Source: Escherichia coli
Lineage (GTDB): Bacteria > Pseudomonadota > Gammaproteobacteria > Enterobacterales > Enterobacteriaceae
Strand: one strand, 5' to 3'
Assembly: GCF_051903065.1 (NCBI RefSeq)
Contig: NZ_CP178438.1
Length of the DNA: 64,000 nt
Below are positions 3,381 to 62,338 of the stretch, piece after piece (positions within the stretch are counted from its first letter, which is position 1; the number at the start of each line of letters is the position of its first letter). The notes below the pieces were generated by a model, which saw nothing but the letters and a program-made list of their open reading frames with translations, ran no database searches and had not been told where the DNA came from. The translations under genes and the position numbers were made by a program.

Positions 3381-4013
3381 TTACTCTTTTGCGGCTAACG
3401 CCAACATTTGCATCATAAACATCACCGAGGTCGCGCCGGGATCCTGGTGACCAATACTGCGTTCACCGAGATAACTGGCGCGGCCTTTGCGGGCTTGCAT
3501 CGTAATCGTACTTTGTGCAGCGGATTCGGCGATGCTACTGGCAGCTTCGAGCGCCGCCGGAACAGAGAGATTTTGCTCGCTGGACTGACGTAACGATTCC
3601 ACCACCGGCACCCACACATCACACATGGTTTTATCGCCAGGTTCGGCTTTCCCGCGACTGATTACGCCGTCCGCGCCATCGCGGAACATCTGATAAAGCT
3701 CTTCCAGCGTCAGGCTTTGCCGTGCCTGGGTCGCCTGTGCGGCGCGGATAAAGAAGGTACCGAACAGCGGACCACTGGCACCACCGACGCTGGAAAGCAG
3801 CGTCATACCGGTATTCTTGAGAATGAAACCGATATCTTTATCTGCGATAGCAGGGAGTTTTTCCACCACTTTGCTAAAGCCTCGGTTCATATTTAGCCCG
3901 TGGTCAGCGTCGCCAATCTCGCGATCCAGTCCGGTAAGATACTCGCTCTCGGTGTTGAAAATATCGCCACAACGAGTGAGCCAGTTAACAATTTGAGTTC
4001 TGCTCAGTGACAT
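3381..4013 (-). CDS. dhaL: dihydroxyacetone kinase ADP-binding subunit DhaL
   Basis: ORF 3381..4091; trimmed to internal Met giving MSLSRTQIVNWLTRCGDIF (210 aa); 10-nt gaps to dhaK and dhaM suggest an operon. Confidence 0.92.
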   Translation of the reverse strand: MSLSRTQIVNWLTRCGDIFNTESEYLTGLDREIGDADHGLNMNRGFSKVVEKLPAIADKDIGFILKNTGMTLLSSVGGASGPLFGTFFIRAAQATQARQSLTLEELYQMFRDGADGVISRGKAEPGDKTMCDVWVPVVESLRQSSEQNLSVPAALEAASSIAESAAQSTITMQARKGRASYLGERSIGHQDPGATSVMFMMQMLALAAKE

Positions 4014-4023
4014 TGCTTTCTCC

Positions 4024-5094
4024 TTATTTACCCCAGTTAAGGGCCGGGGTGTGGACCGGGGCGTCCCAGAGTGCCAGCGTTTCGTCATCAACTTTCAGTA
4101 AGGTGATTGAGAAACCGGTCATATCCAGTGAGGTGCAGTACGCGCCAATTAAATTACGTTCGATAGTCAATCCCGCTTGCTGGCAACGTGTGGTCAGGCG
4201 GTTATAGACGCCGTACAGCTCAGAAAGCGGAGTTGCGCCAAGATTGTTAACCAGTGCAATCACCCGATCGCCAGACTGGAGCGGTTGTTTGGTTTGTGGT
4301 TCTTCCTGCCAGCTGCCTTGTTGATAATCCCAGAAACGCAAAGTGCGATGGTATGAGCCATTTTCCAGCAGGGTGTCGAACATTTCATCGACGGTTTGAT
4401 CAAGGGAAGAGAAGGGGCGGCGGTCAATACCCGGCTCACCATGAATGCCGACGCCAAACTCCATCTCATTATCCGCCAGGGTAAAAGAAGGTTTGCCCGC
4501 GGCAGGAACGGTACAGGCATCGAGAGCGATACCTATTGAGTGGCCTTGATTATTCAACTTACGCCCCAGTTCCGCACAGGCGTCCAGTGAGTCGCCACGC
4601 TCCGCCGCTGCGCCTACGAGTTTTTCAATTAATACGGTGTTGGCAACGCCGCGCCGCCCGGCGGTATAAAGACTGTCTTTTACTGCAACGTCGTCATCAA
4701 TGACCACAGTGGTCACTTTTACGCCGCTATCGTGCAGTAACTCGGTCGCTGTTTCAAAGTTAAGAATATCGCCGGTGTAATTTTTGATAATCAACAGTAC
4801 ACCTTCGCCGCCATCAACTTGCATGGCGCATTCAAAGATTTTATCGGGCGTCGGTGAGGTGAAAATTTCGCCCGGACAGGCCCCCGAAAGCATCCCCTGA
4901 CCGATATAACCACAGTGCATCGGCTCGTGTCCGCTGCCGCCACCCGACAGCAGGGCGACTTTTCCTGCAACAGGGGCATCAGCTCGGGTGACATACACCG
5001 GATCCTGATGCAGTGTCAGCGATGGATGCGCTTTCGCCAGTCCTGCCAGTTGTTCGTCCAGTACGTCTTGCACATCATTGATCAATTTTTTCAT
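4024..5094 (-). CDS. dhaK: dihydroxyacetone kinase DHA-binding subunit DhaK
   Basis: ORF 4024..5124; trimmed to MKKLINDVQDVLDEQLAGLAKAH (356 aa); Dak1 family. Confidence 0.93.
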   Translation of the reverse strand: MKKLINDVQDVLDEQLAGLAKAHPSLTLHQDPVYVTRADAPVAGKVALLSGGGSGHEPMHCGYIGQGMLSGACPGEIFTSPTPDKIFECAMQVDGGEGVLLIIKNYTGDILNFETATELLHDSGVKVTTVVIDDDVAVKDSLYTAGRRGVANTVLIEKLVGAAAERGDSLDACAELGRKLNNQGHSIGIALDACTVPAAGKPSFTLADNEMEFGVGIHGEPGIDRRPFSSLDQTVDEMFDTLLENGSYHRTLRFWDYQQGSWQEEPQTKQPLQSGDRVIALVNNLGATPLSELYGVYNRLTTRCQQAGLTIERNLIGAYCTSLDMTGFSITLLKVDDETLALWDAPVHTPALNWGK

Positions 5095-5209
5095 TATTTT
5101 GCTCCAGCAATTACGGTAGGGCATGGATGATGTTCAACGACACGGCGACCACTGACTGCCGATGAATCCATTGTGCATCAGGCAAGGGAAAAGAAAATTA
5201 GCCCAAATT

Positions 5210-5228
5210 ATGTTTCATAGTGAAACAT
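5210..5228. promoter_or_regulatory. perfect palindrome ATGTTTCA-TAG-TGAAACAT in the dhaK/dhaR divergent promoter region; candidate DhaR operator
   Basis: 8-bp arms with 3-bp spacer read directly; a related imperfect repeat TGTTCCATATTGAAAC lies at 5242-5257. Confidence 0.35.
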
Positions 5229-5321
5229 ATGCTTTAATGAATGTTCCATATTGAAACTTTTACGTGTATTAATACTTAAAATTGCGAGCCGGAACACCTT
5301 TTGTCATAAGGGATGCGGGAT

Positions 5322-7241
5322 ATGAGTGGCGCTTTTAACAACGATGGTCGGGGCATATCTCCCTTAATTGCAACCTCCTGGGAGCGATGCAATAAGCTGA
5401 TGAAACGGGAGACATGGAACGTACCACATCAGGCCCAGGGCGTGACATTTGCTTCTATTTATCGGCGTAAGAAAGCGATGCTGACGCTCGGGCAGGCTGC
5501 GCTGGAAGATGCCTGGGAATATATGGCACCGCGAGAGTGTGCGCTGTTTATTCTCGATGAAACCGCCTGCATTCTCAGCCGTAATGGCGATCCGCAAACC
5601 TTGCAGCAGCTAAGTGCACTGGGATTCAATGACGGCACGTATTGCGCCGAGGGAATTATTGGTACTTGTGCGCTATCGTTAGCGGCTATCTCTGGTCAGG
5701 CCGTGAAAACGATGGCCGATCAGCATTTCAAACAGGCACTCTGGAACTGGGCCTTTTGCGCAACGCCGTTGTTTGACAGCAAGGGCCGATTGACGGGAAC
5801 AATAGCGCTGGCGTGTCCGGTTGAGCAAACTACCGCAGCTGATTTGCCGTTGACGTTGGCAATCGCCCGCGAGGTCGGTAATTTACTGCTGACGGACAGT
5901 TTGCTCGCTGAAACTAACCGTCATTTAAATCAACTTAATGCCCTGTTAGAAAGTATGGATGATGGCGTGATTAGCTGGGACGAGCAGGGTAATTTGCAAT
6001 TTATTAATGCCCAGGCGGCGCGGGTCTTGCGCCTTGACGCGACGGCAAGTCAGGGACGGGCAATCACTGAACTCTTAACGTTACCCGCCGTATTGCAACA
6101 AGCAATAAAACAGGCACATCCGCTCAAACACGTAGAAGCAACCTTTGAAAGCCAGCACCAGTTTATTGATGCGGTGATAACCCTTAAACCGATAATAGAA
6201 ACGCAGGGAACCAGCTTTATTTTGTTGCTCCATCCTGTGGAACAGATGCGGCAGTTAATGACCAGTCAATTAGGAAAAGTCAGCCATACCTTCGCTCATA
6301 TGCCACAGGACGATCCGCAAACCCGCCGCTTGATTCATTTTGGTCGCCAGGCGGCGCGCAGTAGCTTTCCTGTCCTGCTTTGTGGAGAAGAGGGCGTGGG
6401 CAAGGCACTGCTAAGTCAGGCAATTCATAATGAAAGCGAGCGTGCTGCAGGTCCTTATATCGCCGTCAATTGTGAGTTATATGGTGATGCGGCACTGGCG
6501 GAAGAATTTATTGGCGGCGATCGCACGGACAATGAAAATGGCCGTCTGAGTCGGCTGGAACTGGCGCACGGCGGCACGCTGTTTCTTGAAAAGATTGAAT
6601 ATCTGGCGGTGGAGTTACAGTCTGCTTTGCTTCAGGTTATCAAGCAGGGTGTTATCACGCGACTGGATGCGCGGCGTTTAATACCAATTGATGTCAAAGT
6701 GATTGCCACAACGACCGCGGACCTCGCAATGCTGGTGGAACAAAATCGTTTTAGTCGCCAGCTGTATTACGCGCTGCATGCATTTGAAATTACCATCCCG
6801 CCTCTGCGTATGCGGCGTGGCAGCATTCCGGCTCTGGTGAATAACAAATTACGCAGTCTTGAAAAACGCTTCTCTACGCGGCTGAAAATTGATGACGATG
6901 CCCTCGCTCGCCTGGTTTCCTGTGCATGGCCTGGCAACGATTTTGAACTTTACAGCGTCATCGAGAATCTTGCTCTGAGTAGTGATAATGGGCGCATTCG
7001 CGTCAGTGATTTGCCGGAACATCTGTTTACCGAGCAGGCAACAGATGATGTCAGCGCCACACGCCTTTCCACCAGTCTGTCATTTGCGGAAGTTGAAAAA
7101 GAGGCAATTATTAACGCAGCCCAGGTCACAGGCGGTCGCATTCAGGAAATGTCGGCTTTACTTGGAATCGGCCGCACTACGCTGTGGCGGAAAATGAAGC
7201 AACATGGCATTGATGCAGGGCAGTTTAAGCGCCGGGTATGA
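5322..7241 (+). CDS. dhaR: transcriptional regulator DhaR (enhancer-binding-protein family, C-terminal HTH)
   Basis: ORF 5313..7241; start moved to MSGAFNNDGRG (639 aa); divergent from dhaKLM. Confidence 0.92.
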   Translation: MSGAFNNDGRGISPLIATSWERCNKLMKRETWNVPHQAQGVTFASIYRRKKAMLTLGQAALEDAWEYMAPRECALFILDETACILSRNGDPQTLQQLSALGFNDGTYCAEGIIGTCALSLAAISGQAVKTMADQHFKQALWNWAFCATPLFDSKGRLTGTIALACPVEQTTAADLPLTLAIAREVGNLLLTDSLLAETNRHLNQLNALLESMDDGVISWDEQGNLQFINAQAARVLRLDATASQGRAITELLTLPAVLQQAIKQAHPLKHVEATFESQHQFIDAVITLKPIIETQGTSFILLLHPVEQMRQLMTSQLGKVSHTFAHMPQDDPQTRRLIHFGRQAARSSFPVLLCGEEGVGKALLSQAIHNESERAAGPYIAVNCELYGDAALAEEFIGGDRTDNENGRLSRLELAHGGTLFLEKIEYLAVELQSALLQVIKQGVITRLDARRLIPIDVKVIATTTADLAMLVEQNRFSRQLYYALHAFEITIPPLRMRRGSIPALVNNKLRSLEKRFSTRLKIDDDALARLVSCAWPGNDFELYSVIENLALSSDNGRIRVSDLPEHLFTEQATDDVSATRLSTSLSFAEVEKEAIINAAQVTGGRIQEMSALLGIGRTTLWRKMKQHGIDAGQFKRRV

Positions 7242-10983: not shown

Positions 10984-11011
10984 GAAAAATCCACGCAATT
11001 GCGTGGATTTT
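10984..11011 (-). terminator. intrinsic terminator downstream of ychF
   Basis: Perfect hairpin AAAATCCACGCAATTGCGTGGATTTT, followed by a U-run on the minus strand. Confidence 0.6.
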
Positions 11012-13416: not shown

Positions 13417-13470
13417 CAAATAATGCAGTTTGCTGACCAGTCAGTTTGCGCTGACTGGTCAATCTCGTAC

Positions 13471-34628: not shown

Positions 34629-34761
34629 TTGCATAAAAATCTTAATAGTTTAAATAGCTACAGGTATAAAACGTCTTAATTTACAGCATGTTATGCTGTA
34701 ACTGTTAATTATCCTAAAGGGGTATCTTAGGAATTTACTTTATTTTTCATCCCCATCACTC

Positions 34762-40145: not shown

Positions 40146-40852
40146 TCGAACTCGTGATTGTATCGCGTCTCCTTGAATATCCGGATGCTGCCTTATGGCA
40201 GCATCAACAAGAGATGTTTGAGGCGATTGCCGCGTCGAAAAATCTGCCAAAAGAGGATGCCCATGCGCTGGGCATTTTCCTGCGCGATTTAACGACGATG
40301 GATCCGCTCGATGCCCAGGCGCAGTACAGCGAACTGTTCGACCGTGGCCGCGCCACGTCACTGTTGCTGTTTGAACATGTGCACGGCGAATCCCGCGACC
40401 GCGGCCAGGCGATGGTGGACCTGCTGGCGCAGTACGAGCAGCACGGCTTGCAGTTAAACAGCCGCGAATTGCCGGACCATCTGCCGCTGTATCTGGAGTA
40501 CCTGGCGCAGCTACCGCAAAGCGAAGCCGTGGAAGGTTTGAAAGATATCGCGCCGATTCTGGCATTGCTGAGCGCGCGTCTGCAACAGCGTGAAAGCCGT
40601 TATGCCGTGCTGTTTGATCTGCTGCTGAAACTGGCGAATACCGCTATCGACAGCGACAAAGTGGCGGAAAAAATTGCCGACGAAGCGCGCGATGATACGC
40701 CGCAGGCGCTGGATGCTGTCTGGGAAGAAGAGCAGGTTAAATTCTTTGCTGACAAAGGCTGCGGTGATTCAGCAATCACTGCTCATCAGCGTCGCTTTGC
40801 CGGTGCCGTCGCGCCGCAATATCTGAATATCACCACCGGAGGACAGCACTAA
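40142..40852 (+). CDS. narJ: nitrate reductase assembly chaperone NarJ
   Basis: 236-aa ORF; 4-nt overlap with narH. Confidence 0.95.
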
Positions 40853-46920: not shown

Positions 46921-46950
46921 ATAAAAAATCCCGCCGATGGCGGGATTTTA
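46921..46950 (-). terminator. hns intrinsic terminator
   Basis: ATCCCGCCGATGGCGGGAT hairpin flanked by an A-run and T-run. Confidence 0.65.
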
Positions 46951-48870: not shown

Positions 48871-50296
48871 TAATGCCGATCAGTTAAGGATCAGTTGACC
48901 GATCCAGTGGCTGTGTAAGAATCCGGAAACGCTCACTCGTTTCCGGATTTTTTTATGCACATTGGACAGGCTCTTGATCTGGTATCCCGTTACGATTCTC
49001 TGCGTAACCCACTGACTTCTCTGGGGGATTACCTCGACCCCGAACTCATCTCTCGTTGCCTTGCCGAATCAGGTACTGTAACGCTACGCAAGCGCCGTCT
49101 TCCCCTCGAAATGATGGTCTGGTGTATTGTTGGCATGGCGCTTGAGCGTAAAGAACCTCTTCACCAGATTGTGAATCGCCTGGACATCATGCTGCCGGGC
49201 AATCGCCCCTTCGTTGCCCCCAGTGCTGTTATTCAGGCCCGCCAGCGCCTGGGAAGTGAGGCTGTCCGCCGCGTGTTCACGAAAACAGCGCAGCTCTGGC
49301 ATAACGCCACGCCGCATCCGCACTGGTGCGGCCTGACCCTGCTGGCCATCGATGGTGTGTTCTGGCGCACACCGGATACACCAGAGAACGATGCAGCCTT
49401 CCCTCGCCAGACACATGCCGGGACCCCGGCGCTCTACCCGCAGGTCAAAATGGTCTGCCAGATGGAACTGACCAGCCATCTGCTGACGGCTGCAGCCTTC
49501 GGCACGATGAAGAACAGCGAAAATGAGCTTGCTGAGCAACTTATAGAACAAACCGGCGATAACACTCTGACGTTAATGGATAAAGGTTATTACTCACTGG
49601 GATTGTTAAATGCCTGGAGCCTGGCGGGAGAACACCGCCACTGGATGATCCCTCTCAGAAAGGGAGCTCAATATGAAGAGATCAGAAAACTGGGTAAAGG
49701 CGATCATCTGGTGAAGCTGAAAACCAGCCCGCAGGCACGAAAAAAGTGGCCGGGACTGGGAAATGAGGTGACAGCCCGCCTGCTGACCGTGACGCGCAAA
49801 GGAAAAGTCTGCCATCTGCTGACGTCGATGACGGACGCCATGCGCTTCCCCGGAGGAGAAATGGCGGATCTGTACAGTCATCGCTGGGAAATCGAACTGG
49901 GATACAGGGAGATAAAACAGACGATGCAACTGAGCAGGCTGACGCTGAGAAGTAAAAAGCCTGAGCTTGTGGAGCAAGAGCTGTGGGGTGTCTTACTGGC
50001 TTATAATCTGGTGAGATATCAGATGATTAAAATGGCGGAACATCTGAAAGGTTACTGGCCAAATCAACTGAGCTTCTCAGAATCATGCGGAATGGTGATG
50101 AGAATGCTGATGACATTGCAGGGCGCTTCACCGGGACGTATACCGGAGCTGATGCGCGATCTTGCAAGTATGGGACAACTTGTGAAATTACCGACAAGAA
50201 GGGAAAGGGCCTTCCCGAGAGTGGTAAAGGAGAGGCCCTGGAAATACCCCACAGCCCCGAAAAAGAGCCAGTCAGTTGCTTAACTGACTGGCATTA
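48871..50296 (+). mobile_element. IS4 insertion sequence (1426 bp), intact
   Basis: 18-bp imperfect terminal inverted repeats TAATGCCGATCAGTTAAG (48871-48888) and CTTAACTGACTGGCATTA (50279-50296); flanked by 12-bp direct repeat CCCCAGAAGGGG (48859-48870 and 50297-50308); contains a 442-aa transposase ORF. Confidence 0.92.
48955..50283 (+). CDS. insG: IS4 transposase (DDE family)
   Basis: 442-aa [43 protein letters not shown]..., recognised as the IS4 transposase. Confidence 0.9.
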
Positions 50297-54147: not shown

Positions 54148-54175
54148 ATGAAACGGAGCTGCCATGCTCCGTTTA
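54148..54175 (+). terminator. ychE terminator-like hairpin
   Basis: AAACGGAGC-TGCCAT-GCTCCGTTT perfect stem, followed by ACTTCG (weak U-tract). Confidence 0.45.
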
Positions 54176-60465: not shown

Positions 60466-60495
60466 AAAAAGGGCTGACAGTTGTCAGCCCTTTTT
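60466..60495. terminator. bidirectional intrinsic terminator between oppF and yciU
   Basis: AAAAAGGGCTGACAGTTGTCAGCCCTTTTT: perfect hairpin flanked by A5 and T5. Confidence 0.7.

Positions 60496-60513: not shown

Positions 60514-62338
<1,825 letters not shown>

Follow-up and report, generated by a model that had tools for sequence, protein, structure and literature searches.

Predicted DhaR Operator Sites and a Putative Conserved Promoter Geometry in the dhaK-dhaR Spacer of Escherichia coli

Introduction

The dhaKLM operon of Escherichia coli is activated by DhaR (PMC6643234, PMC10084136), a regulator that drives a sigma-70 promoter and for which DhaK serves as co-repressor and DhaL::ADP as co-activator (PMC10084136). 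During growth on dihydroxyacetone, the mRNA of dhaR itself rises strongly together with that of dhaKLM (PMC6643234). Structures of DhaR (4LRX, 4LRY, and 4LRZ) are confined to the sensor domain, residues 1-318, and include no DhaR-DNA structure; RefSeq labels the protein a "dual regulator." Bächler et al. 2005 are said to have found that DhaR represses its own gene and, reportedly, that it binds to the spacer between dhaK and dhaR, where intergenic DhaR sites are presumably also recorded in RegulonDB/EcoCyc. The K-12 RefSeq record carries no annotated binding-site features in this spacer, and a search of full-text literature that included the sequence of the palindrome described below, and that had the primary DhaR papers outside its range, returned no DhaR footprint or motif.

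Among related regulators, the enhancer-binding proteins of the NtrC type are homologous to DhaR as AAA+ activators with a Fis-type helix-turn-helix. They bind 17-bp palindromes of 7-3-7 form, of which two, each for one dimer, share a face of the DNA at a distance of about three turns (about 32 bp between centres in the NtrC enhancer of glnAp2) and lie at least 100 bp upstream. TyrR, whose boxes have the sequence TGTAAA-N6-TTTACA, resembles DhaR in being a relative of the enhancer-binding proteins that has lost its dependence on sigma-54, recognizes palindromic boxes close to sigma-70 promoters, and can activate as well as repress. It differs in the sequence of its box, in an N6 rather than an N3 center, and in its response to amino acids and ATP instead of a partner enzyme. 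DhaR has been grouped with TyrR in earlier work (PMC8743547, PMC4797297). TyrR is the nearest functional analogue of DhaR.

The dha regulons of Klebsiella and Citrobacter are often described as being under sigma-54/enhancer control. In Klebsiella pneumoniae and Citrobacter freundii the regulon comprises dhaD, dhaK, dhaT, and dhaB and is served by orthologous DhaR proteins of about 70 to 74% identity; there dhaR lies 3' of dhaD, whereas in E. coli it is divergent from dhaK. Of the genes in this larger regulon, dhaT has been reported as DhaR regulated (PMC5890353, PMC4785665).

Results and Discussion

The dhaK-dhaR locus

The DNA analyzed here, referred to as the window, is a stretch of 64,000 nucleotides of the E. 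coli chromosome. Between positions 4000 and 7300 it is 100% identical to annotated E. coli dhaL-dhaK and dhaR (Table 1), and the dhaR product, with a score of 1021.7 bits (cut-off, 551), matches NCBIfam NF008485, the DhaR equivalog. The protein combines a GAF-PAS sensor, an AAA+ domain in which the GAFTGA loop is missing, and a Fis-type helix-turn-helix at the C terminus; the Pfam basis for these domains, HTH_8 included, is the Citrobacter orthologue. The divergent promoter region, put at 227 bp in the initial annotation, measures exactly that (5095-5321) and has the same length in K-12 MG1655. A further in-frame ATG stands at 5313 (5313-5321), three codons 5' of the annotated dhaR start at 5322, which is also the start used in K-12.

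Table 1. Genes, predicted operator sites, and putative promoter elements of the dhaK-dhaR region (window coordinates)
Feature	Position	Strand	Description
dhaK	4024..5094	-	First gene of dhaKLM, activated target; start codon at 5094
ATG-proximal dhaK promoter candidate	-35 TTGAAC, 5132-5127; -10 CGTAAT, 5110-5105		Spacing 16; CATAAT in other Escherichia
dhaK promoter -10 (putative)	5170..5175	-	CACAAT; xAxAAT conserved in all genera
T-tract	5187..5199	-	AATTTTCTTTTCC, at the -35 position of the putative dhaK promoter
DhaR site 1 (predicted)	5209..5229		Perfect 9-3-9 palindrome TATGTTTCA-TAG-TGAAACATA, centre 5219, dhaK-proximal
DhaR site 2 (predicted)	5241..5259		ATGTTCCATATTGAAACTT = ATGTTCCA-TAT-TGAAACTT, centre 5250, dhaR-proximal
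dhaR promoter -10 (putative)	5277..5282	+	TAAAAT; TAAATT in other Escherichia
dhaR	5322..7241	+	Regulator gene; ATG at 5322

Two palindromic sites in the spacer

The spacer had initially been annotated with a perfect 8-3-8 palindrome at 5210-5228, followed by a degenerate second copy. The first of these, ATGTTTCATAGTGAAACAT, that is, ATGTTTCA-TAG-TGAAACAT, is indeed a perfect inverted repeat, but one more base pairs on each side, so that its arms are of nine bases rather than eight; its conserved core is GTTTCA-TAG-TGAAAC at 5212-5226. The second element as first delimited, TGTTCCATATTGAAAC at 5242-5257, is separated from the 8-3-8 palindrome by 13 bases. A related copy is present there, as claimed, with the core GTTCCA-TAT-TGAAAC at 5243-5257, and it follows site 1 at a start-to-start distance of 31 bp, about three helical turns. 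Although it departs from the site 1 pattern by 2 mismatches, the term "degenerate" does not suit it, for it matches the family consensus in full and is conserved like site 1.

The two sites are the sole matches to the pattern at up to 3 mismatches in the 64 kb of the window, where 0.42 would be expected, and both fit the family core GTTYCANNNYGRAAC with 0 mismatches, as does no other sequence in the window. For perfect palindromes in general (arms of at least 9 and loops of 0 to 6), Markov-1 random sequence gives an expectation of about 2.0 per 64 kb and 0.007 per 227 bp.

The window as a whole is rich in palindromes of this kind, with about 11 other distinct loci (arms of at least 9 bp, loops of 0 to 6) against about 2 expected. 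They include 10987-11010, 13436-13459, 34681-34701, 40184-40205, 46926-46948, 48923-48946, 50268-50291, 54151-54174, 60469-60492, and 61520-61541 and are probably terminators or operators.

Conservation of the sites across Enterobacterales

Within the species, positions 5195-5275 are present at 95% identity or more in 5,383 of 5,426 complete E. coli genomes. Relatives were sought with DhaR residues 1-399 as query in a scan limited to a single genome for each species, distant enhancer-binding proteins being set aside, and 47 Enterobacterales loci with DhaR orthologues (68 to 97% identity) were obtained. These loci have two layouts. In one, that of Escherichia, Rahnella, Phytobacter, Kosakonia, and some Citrobacter, dhaK and dhaR are immediate divergent neighbors. 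The other, the classic dha regulon of Klebsiella, Raoultella, most Citrobacter, and others, has about 590 bp between dhaK and a divergent dhaD-dhaR.

The core GTTYCA-N3-YGRAAC is kept in the regulatory region of every one of the 47 distinct DhaR-encoding loci. Persistence of the palindrome in species that retain dhaR/dhaKLM had been set beforehand as a test of the DhaR-site proposal, and all 42 non-Escherichia loci proved positive: the pattern TGTTTCANNNTGAAACA, derived from E. coli alone and searched at up to 3 mismatches, has at least one match in the regulatory region of each. Across these 42 loci it occurs 105 times in 24.0 kb of regulatory DNA and 28 times in 271.9 kb elsewhere (4.37 versus 0.10 per kb), while the family core, at up to 1 mismatch, was found 165 times within regulatory regions and twice outside (6.6 versus 0.007 sites per kb); the P-values of such enrichments are inflated, since shared ancestry keeps the loci from being independent and these loci also supplied the family core.

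The number and spacing of the sites are as regular as their sequence. Exactly 4 sites are present in all 36 of the regions between dhaK and dhaD-dhaR, and 2 or 3 in those between dhaK and dhaR; the spacing within a pair is 30 to 32 bp in 83 of 83 pairs from the 47 loci, and in four-site regions the two pairs lie 221 to 223 bp apart. Alignments reveal the half-sites as conserved islands, with the 16-nt inter-site spacer and the flanks varying freely. In each of the 34 aligned loci whose dhaK is of the PTS type, the dhaK-proximal site is the orthologue of site 1. Among Escherichia sequences its GTTTCA and TGAAAC are invariant, substitutions being limited to the central triplet and the outermost bases, and site 2 reads GTTCCATAACGGAAC in the other Escherichia species, a switch between TTGAAAC and ACGGAAC of which both forms lie within the consensus. 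The test with TGTTTCANNNTGAAACA and the pattern of conserved islands are the sound parts of this footprint.

Some loci vary in length around the sites. Escherichia sp. E1V33 (L003) has a 6-bp tandem duplication (AAATCC AAATCC; columns 69-74 of the Escherichia alignment) immediately 3' of the putative dhaK -10/start region, which extends the spacer to 233 bp without changing how far the -10 lies from the sites. The regulatory region of Enterobacter sp. 10-1 (L011) is 743 bp long, having an excess of about 150 bp between dhaD and the pair on the dhaD side, and that of Phytobacter ursingii (L030) measures 855 bp against 456 bp in relatives; these lengths suggest insertions. The dhaK leaders of the Klebsiella type (L005-L049; e.g., L018, about 1179-1240) contain a conserved CCCTAC(A) box and an insertion of 40 to 45 nt, absent in E. 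coli, with an inverted repeat; a CTCC-GAC-GGAG sequence in them allows possible pairing of the Shine-Dalgarno sequence with an upstream anti-SD. Such leader features could be elements of translational control.

The conservation data also bear on whether any protein is involved at all. A palindrome arising by chance, or one acting as a DNA cruciform, an RNA hairpin, or a terminator, would account for the 9-bp stem, which folds as single-stranded DNA at -6.2 kcal/mol (z = -2.4), and would find company in the other palindromic loci of the window. We regard this reading as barely credible. The half-sites are kept while loop and flanks change, which indicates sequence-specific recognition and not stem pairing; site 2 is the poorer hairpin, yet it is equally conserved; and the strict pairing at 30 to 32 bp, like the fixed distance to the -10 element, is without a structural-RNA explanation. 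Moreover, the stem is A+T-rich, no terminator-like sites were found in a scan of 5000-5420, no Rfam match was obtained at an E value of 1 or below, and the palindromes, being 5' of both putative start sites, are probably untranscribed.

The motif and its distribution relative to dhaR

Judged by its distribution, the motif follows DhaR and not the kinase. In the common Citrobacter type, the neighboring kinase is only 32% identical to DhaK, yet 4 sites are kept beside this non-orthologous gene, and the divergent spacer between dhaB and orfY-dhaT in Citrobacter carries a third pair, which consists of GTTCCAATTTGATAC and GTTTCATATTGAAAC at a spacing of 31 bp. Extra pairs are found more generally in dha regulons of the Klebsiella and Citrobacter types, 5' of dhaD and between dhaB and dhaT. 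Motif and pair spacing are the same in K. pneumoniae and C. freundii as in E. coli, the difference being that three pairs serve four promoters in the former and a single pair is present in the latter. Although overall identity among 46 orthologues is only about 70%, all of them have the same DhaR recognition helix, IGRTTLWRKMKQ.

Probable assignment of the sites to DhaR

Taken with the match of the locus to E. coli dhaK/dhaR at 100% and the identification of its product as the DhaR equivalog, the comparative evidence makes it very probable that the two palindromes, inverted repeats of 15 to 17 bp, are the DhaR operator. The proposal of a candidate DhaR binding site in the initial annotation thus gains support from phylogenetic footprinting and from co-occurrence with dhaR. 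Both sites lie inside the control region of dhaKLM and dhaR, and each is a dyad whose half-sites are set about one helical turn from each other, a form that suits a dimer of Fis-type helix-turn-helix domains. The sequence of the sites, their conservation, their co-occurrence with dhaR, their fixed geometry, and the absence of sigma-54 features described below were observed directly. As to the binding protein and its stoichiometry, we infer that one DhaR dimer occupies each palindrome by way of the Fis-type helix-turn-helix at the C terminus of each subunit; with the palindromes 31 bp, or about three turns, apart, the two dimers would lie on the same face of the DNA and be able to associate.

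Other regulators have been connected with this spacer. YgfI/DhfA, of the LysR type, gives a ChIP-exo signal 5' of dhaKLM, and dhaK expression is lower in its mutant (PMC9068703); the T-N11-A rule of LysR-type sites offers little discrimination, as any odd-spaced palindrome fits it trivially. The published predicted YgfI site, however, GATGCACAATGGATTC at -92, corresponds to window positions 5164-5179, which lie 30 bp from site 1 and do not overlap the palindromes (PMC9068703, Table S1). That site coincides with the putative dhaK -10 CACAAT and start, an odd position for an activator, and the published YgfI motif may be picking up the promoter core. NtrC, for its part, yields a genomic-SELEX peak of 40% intensity in the dhaK/dhaR spacer (PMC8743547). 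SELEX-chip resolution, however, is too coarse to assign this peak to one sequence. The NtrC consensus TGCACCA-N3-TGGTGCA shares the 7-3-7 geometry, but the half-sites GTTYCA are unlike the NtrC half-site at the central bases. Weak cross-binding of NtrC to the sites is possible and would not explain their co-variation with dhaR, and in many genera pairs of the motif accompany dhaR at three separate promoters of the dha regulon. We therefore consider it highly improbable that the palindromes are bound mainly by either of these proteins or by another regulator. A CRP site was ruled out by inspection, TGTGA-N6-TCACA differing in half-site as well as in spacing.

Absence of sigma-54 features

The sites are paired and phased, as in enhancers of the sigma-54 class, and this class was nevertheless rejected for DhaR. 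The spacer contains a single match to the -24/-12 element (GG-N10-GC), with 3 mismatches, and the count of such matches over the window, 306 against 336 expected in shuffles, indicates that it is no better than chance. The GAFTGA loop is absent in all DhaR orthologues, where it is replaced by GGDRTDNENG or GSAPTDDENG. The missing loop and the chance-level -24/-12 match agree with the statement that DhaR drives a sigma-70 promoter (PMC10084136). DhaR sites thus differ from NtrC-type enhancers in having no sigma-54 promoter and an activator without GAFTGA; they would also be promoter-close, at about -56 and -87, and would in addition repress a divergent promoter.

Putative promoter geometry

A generic sigma-70/terminator scan of 5000-5420 found no promoter, and the promoter elements were therefore deduced from conservation. 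On the dhaK side, the xAxAAT hexamer, CACAAT in Escherichia and CAGAAT in most genera, has its first base 44 bp from the centre of the proximal site at nearly all loci, and a tract of ATTTTnTTTT or TTTTTTT is conserved between proximal site and -10-like hexamer at both dhaK and dhaD promoters. The hexamer at +44 on the dhaD side is TACAGT in 27 loci, TAGAGT in 6, and TAAAGT in 2; on the dhaT side it is TTAAAT, also at +44, and on the dhaB side TAAAGT at +43. The distance from proximal site to -10-like hexamer is hence 43 to 44 bp at four promoter types. In E. coli the putative dhaK promoter has a poor -35 (ATTTTC), a weakness to be expected where transcription depends on an activator. Reading from these sequence elements, dhaK transcription would start at about 5163, leaving some 69 nt of leader, and sites 1 and 2 would be found near -56 and -87, respectively. 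Class I activators do not classically have their centre at -56. The sole start assigned to dhaK in Kim 2012, with 6 reads, lies 318 nt 5' of the dhaK ATG (K-12 U00096.2 coordinate 1250379), which in the window is about 5412 on the minus strand, antisense inside dhaR.

The sites might alternatively serve the ATG-proximal dhaK promoter candidate (Table 1), activating it at sigma-70 from about -120/-150 in the manner of a remote enhancer. This candidate is a better sigma-70 match than the distal one and has the conserved CCCTAC(A) box beside it; remote action would also be in keeping with the descent of DhaR from enhancer-binding proteins, which work at a distance. Transcription from it, however, would leave a leader of only about 4 to 14 nt that begins at or inside the Shine-Dalgarno sequence, and its separation from the sites varies between genera through indels of 11 to 45 bp, whereas xAxAAT keeps its exact 44-bp distance in a geometry that recurs at dhaD, dhaT, and dhaB. 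Remote activation of this kind is thus unlikely, and since its distance to the sites is not conserved, the ATG-proximal promoter ranks second to the distal candidate, with only a small chance of being the one that DhaR serves.

On the dhaR side, TAAAAT alone, of the blocks resembling a -10, is conserved in a stretch of the Escherichia alignment that has otherwise diverged. A start at about 5287-5289 would place the centre of site 2 near -39, where it would cover the -35 position, an arrangement that fits autorepression. DhaR had initially been cast as an autoregulating activator of dhaKLM; the activation of dhaKLM stands (PMC6643234, PMC10084136), but the position of site 2 fits repression, not self-activation. 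Simple autorepression through site 2 does not predict the rise in dhaR mRNA on dihydroxyacetone (PMC6643234). Between the putative dhaR -10 and the ATG of that gene, GCCGGAACACC includes a lone half-site, CGGAAC, at 5290-5295. None of the seven Escherichia sequences departs from it, though the DNA just 5' of it has diverged, and it could be an extra DhaR contact or merely leader/ribosome-binding context.

Model for regulation of dhaKLM and dhaR

With the distal dhaK promoter as the preferred target, the following model is suggested. DhaL::ADP, as is established in the literature, displaces DhaK from the sensor domain of DhaR and so switches DhaR on. Located at about -56 and -87, according to the putative geometry, DhaR would activate the weak sigma-70 dhaK promoter, in which CACAAT provides the -10 and a T-tract stands in for the -35. 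The same DhaR complex, through site 2, would cover the -35 region of the divergent dhaR promoter and limit dhaR transcription. Start sites, like the contact made with RNA polymerase, enter this model as inferences.

Compared with the described DhaR/dhaKLM-dhaR system of E. coli, the locus, the regulator, and its targets are the same, and probably nothing differs; the sigma-70 activation, the control by DhaK and DhaL::ADP, and the autorepression reported for that system all fit the positions of the sites. What we describe in E. coli is probably the ordinary operator of a characterised regulator, already documented as such, while the consensus across genera, the pair rule, and the 44-bp geometry may go beyond published work.

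Implications

A broader reading, which we put forward as tentative and somewhat doubtful, is that the whole Enterobacterales DhaR clade, Klebsiella and Citrobacter included, uses one rigid sigma-70 promoter design, in which two dimers are bound 31 to 32 bp apart, a T-tract takes the place of the -35, and the -10 lies exactly 43 to 44 bp from the proximal centre. Such a design would be an enhancer architecture that has stayed intact but moved beside the promoter after loss of the sigma-54 contact. If this is true and undescribed, DhaR-dependent promoters, and the engineering of 1,3-propanediol strains with them, would gain an exact rule that can be tested. The consensus GTTYCA-N3-YGRAAC, with the pairing rule and the geometry, offers a guide for reporters, for dihydroxyacetone biosensors, and for rewiring of dha genes in Klebsiella and Citrobacter production strains, and the DhaR sites present the case of an enhancer-binding-protein relative working at sigma-70 promoters.
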